From IMG/VR virus record IMGVR_UViG_3300044640_002221, positions 32,001 to 96,000 of that record: DNA of 64,000 nt, one strand, 5' to 3'. Of the stretch, positions 3,105 through 52,238 are shown piece after piece (the first letter of the stretch is position 1; each line of letters opens with the position of its first letter). The translations under genes were made by a program, and so were the position numbers. The stretch is from a virus. The notes under the pieces were generated by a model. That model saw only the letters and a program-made list of their open reading frames with translations, ran no database searches and was not told the origin of the DNA.

Positions 3105-4609
3105 ACGCTATCCTGCCTGTAGTTTTCACTCTTGTCATAAGCCTGACAAGCTCTTTCTATCTCAATACCTAAGTAACCTAGATGGGCTGCTTGAATACCT
3201 GGATTAGCCGCAGCTATTTGTCTTACCAGTCTTAGTGGAATAGTGCCCTTATACTCTCTGACTGCTTGACCACCCGGAGTTGTTTGAGTAACCAGTACAT
3301 CAAAGTCTTCTACTGTAATTACGAAGTTACCGACTGGATCGCTGTAATCAACTTTTAGTTGATAGTGTTCTTTCAAGACATCATCTGTATGTTGGAAAGA
3401 ATGACCGTAGATGTGAGCTGACTGTGAATTGATTATTAGTTCTCCTGCGATGTAACTGTCATCCAGATACTTTAATAGCACGTCCTGCAGCCGCCGCAAT
3501 GCCATGACATTACTGGGGTAAGCAGTGTACATATCATGAGAGCGGAAGGTAGCTATCATAATTAATCTTTTATCTATCAGTCGCACCCAGATGTTAGTCA
3601 AGCACGGAGGATTCTTGGAGTTAGTGTCTGTAGCAACATTCCAAAGCGAGATTGTACATTGAGAAGAGTCTGGGTTGGCTATAAGTTTGTTAGCTACTTC
3701 GGCTATCTGGTCTGTGGTTATAATCTCATCTTTGATACCTTCATACCACTTAAAAGCTCTAATCTTAGAGCCATAATTATAAGACACGCCTTCTGATATC
3801 TCACCTGTAACCATATAAGGTAGATAGCCTTCCATGAAGTCTGGTGTTACAGGTAGCCAAGGCTCAAAGTGAAAGTCTGCTGGCTCTGCTGCTACTACAG
3901 AAGTCATTTGAATTAATTCCTGTCTTTCACCGTACTGTGAGGCTGTCAGTCTACCAGTAGACCTGATTAAGTGAATAGCCTTTAACCATACTTCTGCTAC
4001 TGTCTGTCCTTTCACTAGATGCCCAGAGAGATCTCCCGGAAGGGTTGGGGATTCTGGTTTTGGTACTTCTACCATGACTGGTTCAGCATATTGTTTAAAG
4101 GGGTCAGACCCTTCTATAAATAAGTAGTGGCGAACCTTGTTGTGCTCTCTCAAATCTTTTACAAGGGTGTCAAGATTAGAAAACAGCGTGAAGTAGGTTA
4201 AGTTATTAAGAGTTGTTCTTAAAGACTCTTCTGGCACAACTAAGTCTACCCTCCCATTAACTTGAGACTTTGGCTTATAGTAGTTAGACTCTTTAGTAAA
4301 TGTTTCTCTTAAGGAAGAAGTAACATTAATTAAGTCATAGAAGCAACGACTAGCCCCTGCTATCTCATCTTGCCTTGTAGCAGACAGAACATAAACATCC
4401 CAGTTATGAGGATTGGCTAACAGGTTAACTATCAGCGGGGTTAAGCCATACATTGGGCTGTATAAGTTACCAATACAAGCGTACTCATGTGGTTCTAGTA
4501 ACTTAGCCACCCGCTCTTTAGGAGTCCAGCCAGTGATAATGATTGCCCTACCAGTTCCAACGATCAGTTCGTTGGCTCGGCATATTGGTTTGTACTGTGG
4601 GTTATTCAT
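3101..4609 (-). CDS. thyA: Thymidylate synthase (ThyA fold), long cyanobacterial-type form with extra N- and C-terminal domains
   Basis: NPPCLTNIW (catalytic Cys), ATFRSHDMY..YPSNVMAL, INSQSAHIY motifs. Confidence 0.8.
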   Translation of the reverse strand: MNNPQYKPICRANELIVGTGRAIIITGWTPKERVAKLLEPHEYACIGNLYSPMYGLTPLIVNLLANPHNWDVYVLSATRQDEIAGASRCFYDLINVTSSLRETFTKESNYYKPKSQVNGRVDLVVPEESLRTTLNNLTYFTLFSNLDTLVKDLREHNKVRHYLFIEGSDPFKQYAEPVMVEVPKPESPTLPGDLSGHLVKGQTVAEVWLKAIHLIRSTGRLTASQYGERQELIQMTSVVAAEPADFHFEPWLPVTPDFMEGYLPYMVTGEISEGVSYNYGSKIRAFKWYEGIKDEIITTDQIAEVANKLIANPDSSQCTISLWNVATDTNSKNPPCLTNIWVRLIDKRLIMIATFRSHDMYTAYPSNVMALRRLQDVLLKYLDDSYIAGELIINSQSAHIYGHSFQHTDDVLKEHYQLKVDYSDPVGNFVITVEDFDVLVTQTTPGGQAVREYKGTIPLRLVRQIAAANPGIQAAHLGYLGIEIERACQAYDKSENYRQDSV

Positions 4610-24123: not shown

Positions 24124-24274
24124 CACTTGTGTTACGAGTAGCCCGGTTCCGACTACTCTCTCTAGCTTTCACTAGAGGTCAGATCATATCATCCTCAGTT
24201 ATGAGGGAGCCTGTTTCGAGTGTCCGACACCCTACGTCTTGTGACTGACCGTTGAACCTTGTACGTGCTATAAG

Positions 24275-24355
24275 TGGATGCTAAAAGAGTTGAACTTTTC
24301 TTGGGTTTCCCCACGACTTATGAGGTCGTTGCCTAAACCGCTCGGCCAAGCATCC
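24275..24355 (-). tRNA. tRNA(CAU), probably Ile2 (Met not excluded), with a 13-nt variable region; nested in intron 4
   Basis: GGATGCT/AGCATCC+A acceptor; D arm GCCGAGCGGTTTAGGC; ACGAC-CTCATAA-GTCGT anticodon arm; GGGGAAACCC variable hairpin; AAAAG-TTCAACT-CTTTT T arm; no encoded CCA. Confidence 0.88.
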
Positions 24356-26320: not shown

Positions 26321-27204
26321 CAGTGTTATTACCGTCAAGGCTCTTTATCCCTGACTTCTACTGGTCACCCAGCAGCTTGGACTATTTCATTATCTAGACT
26401 TAGTAGTAGAACTCTCTTTCTATTTAAGAAGAAACCAGGTTCTTGGTACATAAGCTTGGTCAGCCGTTCAACGCGTTCCTTACTGCCGACTCTTATCACT
26501 TGCACACTCCTATTGTTGTAGATGCTAACCTTAAAGTCATTCTCTCTAAGAAAACTAACTAATTGGTCAACAAACTCTTTACTAGCAGAGCATAAAGTTA
26601 TAGCTTTGTAATCCCCTTTTGCCCCATCCTTTTTGATGTGACCATTCCCATCCATGACACCTCTAAAGAAGCTAAAACTTAAAGGAAAGTTAACCTTTAA
26701 AGATTTACTCTTTCTAGGGGTTATTCCAAGGCTAGTTAAATAAGAAGCAACTTCTTTATTAGTGAAGCTTACCTCGTAATAAGTAGTTTGGTATCTCTTG
26801 TCGAAGATAGGGTAGGGTTTCATCAATTCCCCTAAAAAGCTGCAGAAAGCTAAGGCTAAGTCTTCATCTTTTGTAACTAGACTAACCTTTCCTCTATCAT
26901 GCACGCAGCCATCTGTTGCCATTATTCCCAGCCAGTATTGAACTTCTGGGGCAAGCATTTCTGTAAATGGATTAGTTGTTACTTTCTTAGGGAGTCTTGG
27001 CATCTTTTTCTCTACTACATTCTCAGTCTAGATATCGGGCGCTCGTGGGCAGATTATTATTGGGATTCACTGCCTAGTCTCTGAACCTTCTAGGAAACCT
27101 ATGCCCTTCCTAGCTTGGCTTAGCGTTATCTTACCTTGTAAGACTTTCACTAAATTCACCCGATTTTCATTTATTGATTACTCAATAAAGGGGCTCTCTA
27201 CGGG
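26321..27204 (-). mobile_element. Group I intron 3a of polA (884 nt) with a LAGLIDADG gene in P8
   Basis: IGS GCCCC; P GAAUUUAGUGAAA; R UUCAGAGACUA; P3' CGCCCGAU; P8 AUCUAGACU/AGUCUAGAU; S GAAAUAGUC; ends AUAACACUG. Confidence 0.88.
26365..27003 (-). CDS. LAGLIDADG homing endonuclease (double motif)
   Basis: YWLGIMATDGCV and FFRGVMDGNGHI. Confidence 0.9.
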   Translation of the reverse strand: MPRLPKKVTTNPFTEMLAPEVQYWLGIMATDGCVHDRGKVSLVTKDEDLALAFCSFLGELMKPYPIFDKRYQTTYYEVSFTNKEVASYLTSLGITPRKSKSLKVNFPLSFSFFRGVMDGNGHIKKDGAKGDYKAITLCSASKEFVDQLVSFLRENDFKVSIYNNRSVQVIRVGSKERVERLTKLMYQEPGFFLNRKRVLLLSLDNEIVQAAG

Positions 27205-27274
27205 ACCCTGGATCGCGTGGTTCACTGCAGCGCGAACCGAGCTTTCTCCTACGCCCTTAGCATTCTCTTCATCT
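27205..27274 (-). CDS. polA: Family A DNA polymerase exon (70 nt)
   Basis: (V)DEENAKGVGESSVRAAVNHAIQG, the R.A.N..IQG motif. Confidence 0.9.
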
Positions 27275-31723: not shown

Positions 31724-32154
31724 ACCCATCTCCATAATCCTGATACTGGAGAGATAGCATATCCTCTGGCGGCTGCGATCGCTCCGAACTCTTCTGCCCA
31801 AGCGTAATAACCTGGATAGGTAGTTCTGTGTCCTGTTAACCAAGACTGAGCTACTTCTTCTTTTACACAGAAGTTTTCAGCAGCTGTTGAAGCGGACATA
31901 AGATATATGCTACCAAAGTTGAGAGATTTTGCACTCTTCCTTGCTCCGCTTTTGTCTGCTATTGCTCTCCATTCGTGCTCTGGTTTTCCTTCAAATAAAT
32001 GAGGGGCTACACAACCTTTTGATGAGAGAGTATGTAAATCGGAGTAGGGATTTACATACTCTGTACCATCTTCTAAGTAGAGCTTAGTTTTTGCTAGATA
32101 ACTGTTGACCATTGTGGGGTCTTTCGACCATGCTGCGGCTGTGATTAGCTCTTG
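31724..32154 (-). CDS. polA: Family A DNA polymerase exon containing motif B
   Basis: QELITAAAWSKDPTM...DLHT...RKSAKSLNFGSIY...SGLWRW(V); 431 nt, and phase matches both neighbouring exons. Confidence 0.92.
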
Positions 32155-46556: not shown

Positions 46557-47105
46557 TTATTCAGACTTGAACAAGTCCTGCTCAGCTTTTCTTCTTAGGA
46601 CTAGCCCCTTTAAAATCCCTCTTCTACCTCTTCTCCATTTTGGCAGCTCGTCCGCCGCCCCGGCATAATCTCCTCTGTTCAGCTTCTTCAGTAAAGAAGA
46701 CCTTTGAAAAGCTCCGTCTCCTGTATTAAAAGTGAAAGATACTAGAGCACTAAACTGGTTATCAGTAAGAGGAACCTTTACATATTTACTAACTACAGCC
46801 TCAAATTCTTTCATATCTTGCTGTAGCAGTAGCTCTGCTTTCTCTACTGTAATAGCTCTACCTTGCCTTGCGGTTTTACCTGTATGACCCCACCCAATAC
46901 TTTTTACACCTGATGGACATAAGTAAGGTCTTAGGTACAAACCTTCAAAGTGTTTAACCAGTTTTAACCCCGCTGGGTTGATACGTCTTTCTTGTTTAAC
47001 TGGTTGTATACTGACTTCTTCTTCTTCTTCTTGCTTAAAGTCTATTAAAGGTGTATGCCACTTGAGAGTAACTGCTAATAGAAGGGATTCAAACATTTCT
47101 GTCAA
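46557..47105 (-). CDS. Endolysin, GH24 lysozyme
   Basis: HFEG...Y.CPSG..SIGWGHT; QFSALVSFTFNTG; GL..RR.AE. Confidence 0.92.
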   Translation of the reverse strand: MTEMFESLLLAVTLKWHTPLIDFKQEEEEEVSIQPVKQERRINPAGLKLVKHFEGLYLRPYLCPSGVKSIGWGHTGKTARQGRAITVEKAELLLQQDMKEFEAVVSKYVKVPLTDNQFSALVSFTFNTGDGAFQRSSLLKKLNRGDYAGAADELPKWRRGRRGILKGLVLRRKAEQDLFKSE

Positions 47106-47190
47106 TTGAGTTCTACATCCGCTGAAGTGCGGCTAACTATTGGTCTATCCCTATTTTCTCACTAGTTGAAGATTAATGGAATGTTATAAG

Positions 47191-47229
47191 CTAAAAGCCT
47201 CTTAAATCAATGATTTAAGAGGCTTTTAG
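47191..47229. terminator. Perfect 19-bp inverted repeat (terminator-like)
   Basis: CTAAAAGCCTCTTAAATCA-A-TGATTTAAGAGGCTTTTAG. Confidence 0.7.
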
Positions 47230-47520
47230 GTGCTGGCGTAACAGCCTAGAGGTTAACTATCGTTCTGAGAATAACGTATAAGACCTTGTTCTAGGGTTTT
47301 ATCGAGCGTTGACCCTTAATGGTTGAGCTTTGATAAATAAGAACTTTGAGCTTTTAGGATTGAAAGTTGAACTTTGAAGGTTGAGCTTTGAAGTCTTTTC
47401 TTCGGATGGTTCACTGACCACTAAAGAACGATACGCTTTATGTACACTTCGCCGAGTGTTGGTTAGCCTTTGCCCCAGCTAGAGGGTTCTCTGATTTAAG
47501 TTATTCGCTATGACAGCACT
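47229..47520 (-). ncRNA. Candidate structured ncRNA with an internal heptamer-repeat array
   Basis: ORF-free; ends pair (GUGCUG/CAGCAC, AUAGC/GCUGU); about 12 UCAANNN-type 7-mers at 47299-47391; followed by a hairpin. Confidence 0.65.
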
Positions 47521-47533
47521 GTAATTATAACAC

Positions 47534-48157
47534 CTAAACTTCGATTGTGGTTGTGGAGTTACTAACTGAGATAATGTCATCTACATTATTCATAAAAGCC
47601 TCTACGTCATCATGAAGTTTATTGATTAAAGTAACCAAGTTGAGCGGATCTATAGCAGTAGCTTGATTACGTTCTAAAAAAGGTGTAGCAACGGCTTTAT
47701 AGTCTGACTCTGCTATATCAGTCTTTCCTTGAAAGGTAGACTTGATTAAGTCATCTAACCTATCAGAAACTCTGTTATTTAGGGAAGTCACGGTAGATTC
47801 TACTTTCTTCAGCTGCTGCTGCATTACTTTACCAAGCTGTAGTCGGTACAGGATAGACTGTTTAGTCTCAATAGCAGCGGCTACAGTGTACTCCTTACCA
47901 GCAATAGTAACTTTGGTTGCGCCGTTACTGTTAACTATTGCTTGCTTGATTTTCTCACGATAGTCAATAAGGTCGTTAATAGCCTGGTAACTGCTCTTAA
48001 TAGCTTTTTCTAACTCTTCTTGGCTTCGGTAGCCTACTGGCAGCTGACCTGGCTTTTCCATTAAGAAGACAAAAGTAGACTCAGAAGTGAGTTTTGTGAT
48101 GCGATCGCCTAAAGTTTTGAGTTCTTTGAGGGCGCGAGTGATTGTTAAGGTTGTCAT
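47534..48157 (-). CDS. Conserved coiled-coil protein (DUF6847/DIP1984-like)
   Basis: TITRALKELKTL..RI, DLIDYREKIKQAIVNSN..T.V.IAG..YTVAAAIE.K, D.FM..VD..ISVSNSTT. Confidence 0.65.
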   Translation of the reverse strand: MTTLTITRALKELKTLGDRITKLTSESTFVFLMEKPGQLPVGYRSQEELEKAIKSSYQAINDLIDYREKIKQAIVNSNGATKVTIAGKEYTVAAAIETKQSILYRLQLGKVMQQQLKKVESTVTSLNNRVSDRLDDLIKSTFQGKTDIAESDYKAVATPFLERNQATAIDPLNLVTLINKLHDDVEAFMNNVDDIISVSNSTTTIEV

Positions 48158-49991: not shown

Positions 49992-52238
49992 TTAAATCTT
50001 GACTGTTGTTTCACCTAGTACAAAAGAAACCTTTGCTTGAACTCCATCAAACTGACCTTGTAGAGTACAGTTATCGCGGCTGTCAAACTCCGGGAACCAT
50101 TGTTTACCAAGGATAACTGAGAACTTACTGCGCTGTACTTGCGATCGCAGTTCACGCTGACGTTTCTTAACTACTTCTATCTGGCACTCCAGCCAGCCTT
50201 TAATAACTTCATCCTTACAGTTCTCTATGCAAGTTTTGAAGTAGATTAAAGTATGTACCATTGCTGTAAGAGGAGTTCCAGCTTTAAGAGTGTGAGTTTC
50301 TTCCAGAGCCTCAACAGCTTTCTCAACTTTGGGTAAAGAACTCCAGCCTGCTACTTTTAGCTCAAAGGTCTTCACTTGGTATTGATCTGTTACATCTTCC
50401 TTAACTGTTGGTGGTGCAAATCCATTCTTAGTTATACCTTTAGACTGCAGGAACGCTGTCTGCTCTTTTGTGTAACCTTCAAAGGAAACTTGTTCTGGTG
50501 TTACTTCAGCCAGAAGATATTTATAAACCTTTAGCTTGGCTCCCAGAACTTCATCCTCTACTGCTAAGTTAGCTAGAGTTTGACCTGCACCAAGTTGTCT
50601 TGCTGATTCGGCGATCGCTTGATTGATGAGAGGTAGTTTATATAGTTCTGCTACTCCTTCTCTCCTGGAGCGCGTTGTTATATAAGTACCCCAATTCTCT
50701 AGCTCTTGGTTAAAGGGTTCTTGGTTGAAGATGTCAGAGATAGCTTCATCTGATAATGCTAATGGCAGTCTTGAAGTCCACAGATGACCATCTTTAATGA
50801 TTGTGTAGTTTCTCCAGGTATAGGTGCTTATAGCGGCTGTAAGCCCTACTTCATCTGCATCTGGCAGATAAACAATGCCCGGTATCCTAACCAAAGCTGA
50901 CAGACTCAACTTTGAGCTATTCCAAGTCAAGCCCGCAATATCAGAACTTGCTCCTTGGATGGGCTGGAACTCTGGATATCCTTCTGCCGTTACTGTCTTT
51001 CTACCTGTACGCTTGTACTTAAAGTCAGGATGAGAAGGTAAGAAAGAAGCATTATGTTCTAGCAGCTTATCTAACAAGTCCAAAACACAAAAAACATTTT
51101 TATCTGGCTGGGGATTTGCTTGGTAGCCAAATGGATATCTGTTACGAACAGGGTTAGGATAGCCAATTGAGTTAAGCGGAGGTATTGGTTTGAAAATGTT
51201 AGCTACTTGATTCTCAAACTCTCCATGCTCTTGTGCAGTAAAAGCTCTATTAAGTCCCTCGAATAGAAACTTATTACCAATTGCAGATGAAAGAGCGATC
51301 GCGTCAGCAGTCTTCATTCTTTGGTTGAGAACTACAGCCCCTGCTAAAGCACCATCAATTAATGAATGATAATCTGGGTCATTAAACTTCAAGTCATTGA
51401 TAACTACTTTCTTAGAGTCACCAGCTACATCATTACTAATGAAGTAAACAGAGAAAGTGTCCCCTACGCTAGGCGGAGAGACTAATACTTCCCCAAAGGC
51501 TTGCTCATAACTACAGATGCCACTGTGAAGAGTAAAGACGTTTAAAATCTCACCCATACCATCAAGCTCAACATTAACTTTCTTTACAGTAGGCATCCCT
51601 TCTATAAAGTCAGTCATTGCACGCCCATAGTCTTGTTGGTCTGAACAGTGGCGTAACTCCCCACCAACTTCAGCAGCCATTTGTGCTAATAATTCTTTGT
51701 TGTAGTAGTCACCATAACCAATAAACTGCGCGGAAGTGAGTCTAGACTCCAACTTTGATAAAGCAGAGCTGATGCTCTCTACTTCCTTTTTATAGTTATT
51801 TACTACTGGATAGCCGTCTGTGAACAACCACAGCGCAAAGTTTGTACTAATCCATGACAACTCCTCAATAACATTTAAAGAGTCTTGTAGAATCTCAGAG
51901 AAGCAAGTGAGAGACAAGGATTGTTTGTACTTGTTTAGCTCCTGATCCAGCTTGTTGTGGTCTTCTTCTGTCGTCAGCTTCAAGCCTTTAAAGACAAAGC
52001 GGTACATTCCTTCCGAGCTAAAGTATCCAAAAGATAAAGTGTCTTGTGTGTTTAACTCTCTATGGCTTGTCTTGAGGTCGTCAATTAGTCTTGGCAGTTC
52101 TCTACTCATAGAACCGCTGCGGTCTACTAACCAAATGTGGTTTACTGCCGCTCTGACCTTGCTTTCTACCCGAGACTTAACAGTAACGAACTGTTCGTTC
52201 AAGTAGAGGTCTCCAAACTTGATATGTCTGTTAGTCAT
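49992..52238 (-). CDS. vWA-domain protein
   Basis: MIDAS WLVDRSGSM, LT, LFTDGYP in the N-terminal third. Confidence 0.8.
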   Translation of the reverse strand: MTNRHIKFGDLYLNEQFVTVKSRVESKVRAAVNHIWLVDRSGSMSRELPRLIDDLKTSHRELNTQDTLSFGYFSSEGMYRFVFKGLKLTTEEDHNKLDQELNKYKQSLSLTCFSEILQDSLNVIEELSWISTNFALWLFTDGYPVVNNYKKEVESISSALSKLESRLTSAQFIGYGDYYNKELLAQMAAEVGGELRHCSDQQDYGRAMTDFIEGMPTVKKVNVELDGMGEILNVFTLHSGICSYEQAFGEVLVSPPSVGDTFSVYFISNDVAGDSKKVVINDLKFNDPDYHSLIDGALAGAVVLNQRMKTADAIALSSAIGNKFLFEGLNRAFTAQEHGEFENQVANIFKPIPPLNSIGYPNPVRNRYPFGYQANPQPDKNVFCVLDLLDKLLEHNASFLPSHPDFKYKRTGRKTVTAEGYPEFQPIQGASSDIAGLTWNSSKLSLSALVRIPGIVYLPDADEVGLTAAISTYTWRNYTIIKDGHLWTSRLPLALSDEAISDIFNQEPFNQELENWGTYITTRSRREGVAELYKLPLINQAIAESARQLGAGQTLANLAVEDEVLGAKLKVYKYLLAEVTPEQVSFEGYTKEQTAFLQSKGITKNGFAPPTVKEDVTDQYQVKTFELKVAGWSSLPKVEKAVEALEETHTLKAGTPLTAMVHTLIYFKTCIENCKDEVIKGWLECQIEVVKKRQRELRSQVQRSKFSVILGKQWFPEFDSRDNCTLQGQFDGVQAKVSFVLGETTVKI

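Follow-up and report, generated by a model that had tools for sequence, protein, structure and literature searches.

What is the stretch of some 290 nucleotides (nt), bearing phased repeats of seven nucleotides, that lies directly behind a gene for a 207-amino-acid helical protein in a viral genome, and does it form a functional unit with that gene? The DNA in question, referred to below as the window, is the whole stretch of 64,000 nt that was analysed, positions 32,001 to 96,000 of the virus record IMGVR_UViG_3300044640_002221, a record of 136,923 bases with an estimated completeness of 71%. We report that the non-coding stretch specifies a structured RNA of a large family, and that this family is tied to one protein family encoded immediately upstream. 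An initial annotation of the window had proposed that gene and RNA make up a single two-component unit, and this proposal is now strongly backed by sequence comparison, because the two co-occur in both directions, the structure of the RNA covaries and the RNA is better conserved than the gene. Judged from these sequences, the pair is probably a protein-RNA particle that has not been described before. Its two components are:

47534..48157, minus strand: gene for the 207-amino-acid helical protein, an open reading frame with its stop codon TAG at 47536-47534
47230..47519, minus strand: structured non-coding RNA of 290 nt, its bounds being those of the closing helix P1

The first paired base of the RNA, G47519, lies 14 nt past the stop codon of the gene, precisely the spacing given in the initial annotation, and the lack of open reading frames claimed there holds apart from a trivial 40-codon GTG frame (47299-47421), the sole reading frame of 47519-47230. 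The region folds better than shuffled versions of itself (z = -4.3). ARAGORN calls no transfer-messenger RNA (tmRNA) and no transfer RNA (tRNA) within it. An Rfam search of the whole window gave no match in the RNA region at gathering score, and when the interval 46900-47800 was searched, as had been recommended, there was none even at E 10.

The gene and the RNA recur together far beyond this virus. The protein is found by tblastn in 742 phage records, comprising T5-like phages of Salmonella and E. coli, phages of Vibrio, Pseudomonas, Aeromonas, Bacillus and Klebsiella, and Erwinia jumbo phages. Behind the homologous gene lies an unannotated gap of 442 nt in the T5-like phage JLBYU40 and of 363 nt in Vibrio phage Ceto, and both gaps have paired ends, runs of heptads and a CUAGG/GGCUG-type motif near the 3' end. 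In 441 T5-like records gene and gap together retain at least 88% identity, the version in phage BF23 consisting of BF23_00102 and an unannotated gap of 360 nt. All but a few of the 78 IMG/VR loci, which came from an alignment-based search (a search of viral contigs with the single protein gave none), show the homologous gene followed by a gap of 300-500 nt with heptads, and the same RNA stands behind the gene in 80 loci from bacterial-genome collections, belonging to filamentous cyanobacteria, Bacillales, Deinococcus, Roseburia and one Bathyarchaeia metagenome-assembled genome. The fetched homologue loci, about 160 in all, are designated L001, L003, L067 and so on; a strict pattern finder recovers the RNA in 102 of 161 of them, most of the others having GGCAG or AGCUA in place of the conserved element GGCUG. 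The examination of the downstream regions of homologues that the initial annotation had recommended thus finds the repeat RNA in nearly all of these loci. Among the outliers, L029 carries a long (GGAAAA)n-like repeat of 6 nt behind the homologue (3106-3400), with a match to the model of the RNA's 3' domain (R1, below) at 3745-3828, some 640 nt past the stop codon; L045 and L046 resemble it.

The RNA has an elaborate fold, the elements of which are given here in the order in which they follow one another from its 5' end:

47507..47519, minus strand: P1, 5' strand GUGCUGUCAUAGC, pairs with 47230-47242
47499..47503, minus strand: pseudoknot, 5' strand UAACU, separated from P1 by the three bases GAA
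47392..47498, minus strand: variable domain with local hairpins, its length and sequence varying in the alignment; some relatives have a tRNA gene at this position
47343..47391, minus strand: heptad block 1, seven units (UCAAAGC, UCAACCU, UCAAAGU, UCAACUU, UCAAUCC, UAAAAGC, UCAAAGU)
47334..47342, minus strand: U-rich linker of 9 nt, UCUUAUUUA, between the heptad blocks; many relatives have a similar linker
47306..47333, minus strand: heptad block 2, four units (UCAAAGC, UCAACCA, UUAAGGG, UCAACGC)
47296..47305, minus strand: conserved single-stranded element UCGAUAAAAC, leading into P2; three A's are invariant in 56 aligned 3' domains
47291..47295, minus strand: P2, 5' strand CCUAG, pairs with CUAGG at 47245-47249
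47283..47286, minus strand: P3, 5' strand AGGU, pairs with ACCU at 47250-47253
47259..47277, minus strand: P4, hairpin ACGUU...AACGAU with one bulge, read from the sequence; a varying hairpin stands here in relatives, as seen by inspection
47254..47258, minus strand: pseudoknot, 3' strand AGUUA, pairs with 47499-47503
47250..47253, minus strand: P3, 3' strand ACCU, pairs with 47283-47286
47245..47249, minus strand: P2, 3' strand CUAGG, with CU and then P1 behind it
47230..47242, minus strand: P1, 3' strand GUUACGCCAGCAC, pairs with 47507-47519

The closing helix P1 has 13 positions in the window, two of them mismatched, and 12 positions are common to the family. Among 57 non-redundant relatives, whose P1 strands all differ, 97% of these positions are paired, each by 4-6 kinds of pair, and sliding the partner strand lowers the figure to 31-54%; this set was preselected for at least 8 of 10 pairs, which inflates the percentage and leaves the diversity of pair types unaffected. 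The pairing of the RNA ends had been noticed in the initial annotation, and its outer part, GUGCUG (47519-47514) with CAGCAC (47235-47230), is retained; the inner register proposed there, AUAGC with GCUGU, has to be replaced, since in the 57 relatives the helix runs straight on, 47518-47507 with 47231-47242. P1 adjoins a conserved CGAAAA on its 5' side and, on its 3' side, the conserved element GGCUG, the two G's of which belong to P2. Over 75 sequences P2 is paired in 98.9% of cells, 100 of which are changed on both sides, a result that 0 of 500 shuffles match. P3 follows the pattern NGGU/ACCN across relatives, which we established by inspection, as MAFFT misaligns P3 and P4.

Furthermore, covariation links bases 5-9 after P1 to the five bases that directly precede the 3' strand of P3, with a mutual information of 0.4-0.64 and 4-6 pair types, and in relatives the two strands of this pseudoknot change to AUCAGA/UCUGAU, CGCCGU/ACGGCG or AACGAUA/UAUCGUU. 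On its 3' side the RNA is therefore a single continuous strand that supplies the pseudoknot partner, P3, P2 and, after CU, P1, each pairing in turn with a segment of its own farther upstream, four in all. This core closes a loop, both ends of which it holds, made up of the variable domain and of the heptad stretch, the latter some 95 nt of single strand. The pseudoknot, like the strong association of the family with tRNA arrays described below, was absent from the initial annotation.

The heptads of the window amount to 7 + 4 phased units of the form U-Y-A-A-N-N-N, and they stand exactly as they had been listed in the initial annotation, seven at 47391-47343 and four at 47333-47306. With an autocorrelation of 0.344 at lag 7, the heptad region gives the strongest 7-nt signal of the 64 kb (windows of 84 nt; the maximum is 0.144 outside the RNA and 0.163 over 200 shuffles). 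The alignment across phyla holds the heptads in register from the cyanophage to Bacillales, and the logo of the family reads U (72%), N, A (93%), A (74%), r, g, y, with UCAGGAC or GCAAGGA as the units of GC-rich relatives. We rejected the notion that the heptads are coding sequence, since in relatives the units UUAAAG and UGAAAG interrupt every frame with stop codons. Mimicry of an anticodon loop by each heptad, read as Y-U-N-A-A-R-N, was judged a weak idea, because position 6 of the heptad is mostly G and G is rare at position 38 of tRNAs.

To ask how closely the RNA keeps to its gene, we used a covariance model, R1, of the 79-position 3' domain of the RNA. The window contains the full succession by which this domain is recognised (UCGAUAAAAUCC, P2, P3/P4, GGCUG and then the 3' strand of P1), and R1 matches it at 47232-47309 with 57.6 bits (E 1.8e-8), a score that is partly so by construction, the window being in the seed. 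There is one match per locus, always downstream of the gene and on the same strand, and at least 19 loci outside the seed are matched. One match is found in the whole 137-kb phage record. In four whole bacterial genomes (4-12 Mb) matches occur only beside the gene, one of these genomes having two copies of the gene-RNA pair, and in 150 sampled cyanobacterial genomes the model revealed two new copies of the RNA, both with the protein gene immediately upstream. The protein is absent from the three RNA-negative cyanobacterial genomes that were checked. In the genomes searched R1 thus matches only beside the gene, and the link between gene and RNA therefore holds both ways. The relative conservation of the two components is seen in a comparison of the window with L003, its closest fetched relative, in which the RNA is 85% identical, the gene 61% and the flanks 37-59%.

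The protein itself belongs to a large family of uniform length. It matches phrog_1491 with an E value of 1.8e-56, residues 1-207 aligning with positions 2-209 of the 211 of the profile. The family numbers 3,822 representatives at 50% identity, of which 1,772 score an E value of 1e-30 or better, and nearly all of 150 listed representatives are 202-217 residues long. The label of phrog_1491, 'tail fiber protein', is probably wrong and a propagated error; the T5-like homologue sits in the early tRNA region, beside lysis and nucleotide-metabolism genes. The homologue carries this label in hundreds of T5-like records (for instance L001:3995-4633 and L176:701-1339) and is once named 'major capsid protein'. 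Searches with the 207-residue protein gave no Pfam, NCBIfam, PADLOC or PDB sequence-family match. An AlphaFold2 model built on an alignment of 61 sequences (mean predicted local distance difference test, pLDDT, 91.3) consists of long helical hairpins and a small beta sheet, the latter formed by both termini together with a central hairpin. The invariant or near-invariant residues L10, K14, R19, K71, S77, N78, T81, K99, D170, P171, D193 and N200 group around the modelled sheet.

The only clear structural relative is 3kdq, an uncharacterised protein of Corynebacterium diphtheriae. VIA aligns it with Z 11.1 over 151 of 152 residues (next match Z 7.4), and it is the top match of Foldseek, with a probability of 1.0 and a template modelling (TM) score of only 0.38-0.48. 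A profile search against 3kdq gives a weak E value of 0.0023, the aligned region including the motif SN..T...G.MT.A.A, and in the ESM Atlas the nearest annotated neighbour is the DIP1984/PF20935 cluster. The initial annotation had called the gene 'DUF6847/DIP1984-like'. As a statement of remote homology this is upheld by the 3kdq profile, Foldseek and VIA; as a family assignment it fails in Pfam and NCBIfam, with no match to PF20935 (DUF6847) at E 10 and none to the NCBIfam model DIP1984 at E 1. The protein is thus a remote relative of DIP1984/DUF6847 (PF20935; 3kdq, function unknown) and not a member, and it is about 50 residues longer. The Bacilli genes that do match PF20935 (L165-L175) also have a non-coding stretch behind them, with complementary ends CCCGCC...GGCGGG in the four strongest, and about 6 of these 11 loci show short runs of 7-nt period with another core (UAAC, UUAC or GUAAC), the 7-nt signal being weak. 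There are hints here that the whole DUF6847 superfamily pairs with heptad RNAs, the mark differing by clade.

A further property of the family is its proximity to tRNA genes. In about half of the phage loci tRNA genes lie within 2.5 kb on the same strand, and in four loci (L006, L021, L025 and L034) a tRNA gene lies inside the variable domain of the RNA. In Coleofasciculus, Dulcicalothrix, Calothrix and Moorena the pair is found inside dense tRNA arrays, Dulcicalothrix desertica PCC 7102 being one strain with the pair in a long array; the long tRNA arrays of cyanobacteria are reported to be stress-induced (in Anabaena by chloramphenicol) and to carry embedded hypothetical genes (PMC8421152). 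Other RNAs were observed in the neighbourhood of the pair. A phage-encoded tmRNA, with its tag peptide, was called by ARAGORN in L040 (448-857), a locus rich in tRNA genes, the homologous gene lying some 1.6 kb downstream of it. Orphan phage-associated Rfam motifs also stand beside the pair (L081:3516-3644; L032:1428-1555; L051:937-1065 and 371-425): a skipping-rope RNA that follows the RNA directly in Paenibacillus, RAGATH-36 on the upstream side of the gene in two phages, and a sub-threshold match to twister-P1. The anti-retron protein Rad of the T5 family, encoded in the same tRNA-rich region, was considered and set aside as a different protein (189 amino acids, TOPRIM-like annotation).

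Two signals flank the RNA in the window:

47524..47532, minus strand: extended -10-like element TGTTATAAT, 5 nt upstream of the first paired base of the RNA, read from the sequence
47191..47229, minus strand: inverted repeat of 19 + 19 nt (47229-47211 / 47209-47191), folding as 18 bp with a 3-nt loop

Where the window has the extended -10-like element, L003 carries TGTTAGAAT; such an element is present in only 2 of 86 relatives, and the one in the window went unlisted in a consensus promoter scan, for which a -35 box is required. In most relatives 8-20 nt separate the stop codon from the start of the RNA and contain no obvious promoter, so that most copies of the RNA are probably co-transcribed with the gene. 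The inverted repeat behind the RNA is likely to be an intrinsic terminator. Its core GCCUC...GAGGC is followed by UUUU, and a comparable hairpin is present in L003; a strict terminator scan did not list it, the tail having fewer than five U. The '19-bp hairpin' of the initial annotation is correct as to the repeat, and one pair too long as to the fold.

The explanation that we favour, and which as a whole we hold to be somewhat more probable than the sum of doubts about it, is a ribonucleoprotein particle with an oligomer on the heptads and a role in translation or tRNA biology. The 207-residue protein and the RNA would form the particle, and several copies of the protein, or a defined oligomer, would read the phased U.A(A) marks in a manner resembling hexameric HutP; the conserved beta-sheet 'head' of the protein may do the reading. 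Binding of the RNA by the protein, and its oligomerisation along the single-stranded heptads, are plausible by analogy, because the heptads stay in register across phyla and form two blocks like the two HutP sites. The particle would most likely serve translation, or tRNA-related takeover or protection, in infection or stress, a role that we infer because relatives sit in tRNA arrays, sometimes with a tRNA inside the RNA.

Several points weigh against this explanation. The 207-residue protein has no recognised RNA-binding domain. The number of heptads in the family ranges from about 10 to 14 and the block sizes vary (counts from a crude and noisy parser), and a fixed heptad stoichiometry is not supported by them. 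The pair in the window lies outside any tRNA array, the sole tRNA that ARAGORN calls in the window (tRNA-Met, 24274-24355) being 23 kb away, and the tRNA link is a property of the family and not of this locus. Finally, strict linkage of gene and RNA could also be expected if the RNA regulates the gene or is merely co-transcribed cargo.

A more specific form of the particle explanation is possible, though we regard it as doubtful. Here the RNA would be a molecular ruler, the pseudoknotted core of which closes a loop of about eleven heptads for a defined protein oligomer, and the whole would represent a new class of ribonucleoprotein acting on the translation apparatus. Carried across phyla by phages and mobile tRNA arrays, such a particle might shield or mimic tRNA or messenger RNA against host nucleases, or reprogramme ribosomes under translational stress.

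The neighbouring protein may not be the ligand of the RNA at all. A host factor might instead be caught by the heptads, which would then work as a decoy or sponge, a role that the initial annotation had also suggested, alongside an anti-defence one. RNA-binding proteins, ribonucleases and defence nucleases that target tRNA or messenger RNA would be candidates for this factor, and the protein encoded next door could be a regulator, a chaperone or an unrelated partner transcribed along with the RNA. Like known sponge RNAs, the heptad stretch is rich in A and single-stranded, and the UCAGGAC and GCAAGGA units of GC-rich relatives resemble GGA or Shine-Dalgarno motifs. The family also travels with phage tRNAs, one known role of which is to offset tRNA-cleaving defences (bioRxiv 10.1101/2023.03.15.532788), and the unit Y-U-N-A-A-R-N is loosely like an anticodon loop with an NAA anticodon, a likeness weakened by the frequent G at position 6. 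However, the hosts comprise Proteobacteria, Bacillota, Cyanobacteria, Actinobacteria, Deinococcus and an archaeal metagenome-assembled genome, so that a single target would have to be universal, and the near-obligate adjacency, on the same strand, to one protein family is left unexplained. We consider a sponge rather unlikely. Still less probable, in our estimation, is a long structured 3' untranslated region acting in cis on the messenger of the gene, through stability, autoregulatory binding or control of termination. The start of the RNA 8-20 nt past the stop codon and the probable co-transcription are what such an element would show, but a pseudoknotted fold of 230-440 nt with about eleven phased repeats, maintained across phyla, exceeds the needs of known stabilisers, and the RNA is better conserved (85%) than the gene it would serve (61%). 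Whole tRNA genes are embedded in the RNA of some relatives, and processing into a stable RNA is therefore implied; in addition, the extended -10-like element precedes the RNA in the window and in L003, and Rfam curators class a 5' fragment of the RNA as a gene and not as a cis-regulatory element.

The initial annotation had also entertained a type III toxin-antitoxin-like system, and to this may be joined a retron-like template RNA, both prompted by a repeat-bearing RNA beside a small protein gene and, for the retron, by paired RNA ends that recall the a1/a2 repeats of retron RNA. In type III systems of the ToxIN kind the antitoxin RNA consists of tandem repeats of about 34-36 nt and precedes the toxin gene; a unit of only 7 nt and an RNA placed behind its gene speak against that suggestion. 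The only clear structural relative of the protein is 3kdq; there is no PADLOC family match, and no chain of the ToxN/AbiQ fold appears among the fold matches listed for it. That no reverse transcriptase gene is visible in the window had been remarked already, and this extends to the whole 137-kb record (71% complete), which has no RVT_1 match; the flanks of the examined loci showed none either. Either system would come as a considerable surprise, and the ribonucleoprotein particle remains the explanation that we prefer.

As to the surroundings of the pair, nearly all genes of the window are on the minus strand, and the pair has no companions: a gene of unknown function flanks it on one side, and on the other, past the RNA and the inverted repeat, comes an endolysin gene (46557-47105; Phage_lysozyme, E 2e-44). 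A position just upstream of lysis genes recurs in T5-like phages and Vibrio phage Ceto, where the neighbours are a cell wall hydrolase or a spanin and a hydrolase, and this shared position could stem either from a gene order inherited in common or from a functional connection. A 748-residue protein (phrog_2426) with weak von Willebrand A-type matches (E 0.005-0.008) is encoded at 49992-52238 on the minus strand, three genes upstream of the pair. Farther off, at 26358-27214 on the minus strand, an Rfam match (63.7 bits) marks a group I intron with a frame of 212 codons inside it.

The window adds a cyanophage member to a family of heptad-repeat RNAs, and every member examined of a protein family with about 3,800 representatives at 50% identity adjoins a dedicated complex RNA. 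The pair occurs both in model phages (the 441 T5-like records, BF23 among them) and in the stress-induced long tRNA arrays of cyanobacteria. If it is a particle, it would constitute a new kind of RNA-protein machine in phage biology, and may explain part of what phage and mobile tRNA arrays do; the 7-nt register, if fixed, would be a natural design for spacing proteins along RNA. The question is directly testable, given that T5 and BF23 grow on E. coli K-12.

Our literature search found no paper on the gene-RNA pair, and the databases hold for it just the mislabelled 'tail fiber protein' and an orphan motif of 86 nt. The latter is RAGATH-27 (RF03100), an orphan candidate small RNA with a model of 86 positions, for which we found no recorded function or partner protein. 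In L067 (92.9 bits) and L075 (87 bits) RF03100 covers the initial 86 nt of the RNA, the match beginning exactly at the 5' strand of P1; L064, at 47.9 bits, is below the gathering score of 76.1 bits, which the RNA of the window does not reach either, there being no match in 46900-47800 at E 10, and none in the whole window or in 20 other loci at gathering score. In the model the strands of P1 and of the pseudoknot count as conserved but unpaired, 46 bases in all, and a single hairpin comes after them; heptads, 3' domain, closing helix and pseudoknot are missing from it. RF03100 is therefore the 5' fragment of one subclade, and the family to which the RNA of the window belongs is wider than this motif.

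Large structured RNAs of unknown function that are often carried by phages or prophages, next to tRNA genes and possibly co-transcribed with them, are known as GOLLD and ROOL (PMC5737381). They share the phage and tRNA context with the present RNA, which has no Rfam sequence or structure match to them. To our knowledge, neither a dedicated partner protein gene nor a heptad array has been described for GOLLD or ROOL. That an orphan motif may prove to be the RNA partner of an adjacent protein gene is illustrated by RAGATH-18 and the TnpB of IS607 (PMC11061315). RAGATH-18/TnpB is an RNA-guided nuclease, whereas here the protein is without a nuclease fold and the RNA without an evident guide segment.

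The nearest parallel for the repeats is the hut terminator RNA of Bacillus subtilis, in which UAG-N4 marks recur every 7 nt, in two blocks with a linker, and are read by two faces of a protein hexamer (PMC2425495). The differences are considerable. HutP has another fold, and the 207-residue protein has no Pfam HutP match; the core of the repeat is NAG there and U.AA here; and the hut RNA places 3 + 3 repeats in a messenger leader that controls termination, whereas the RNA of the window, which is not a leader and has no evident ligand or terminator switch, places about 7 + 4 in a pseudoknotted stand-alone RNA. We regard the likeness to HutP as an analogy of working principle only, expressed in U.AA marks that recur every 7 nt and are set out in two blocks about a U-rich linker.

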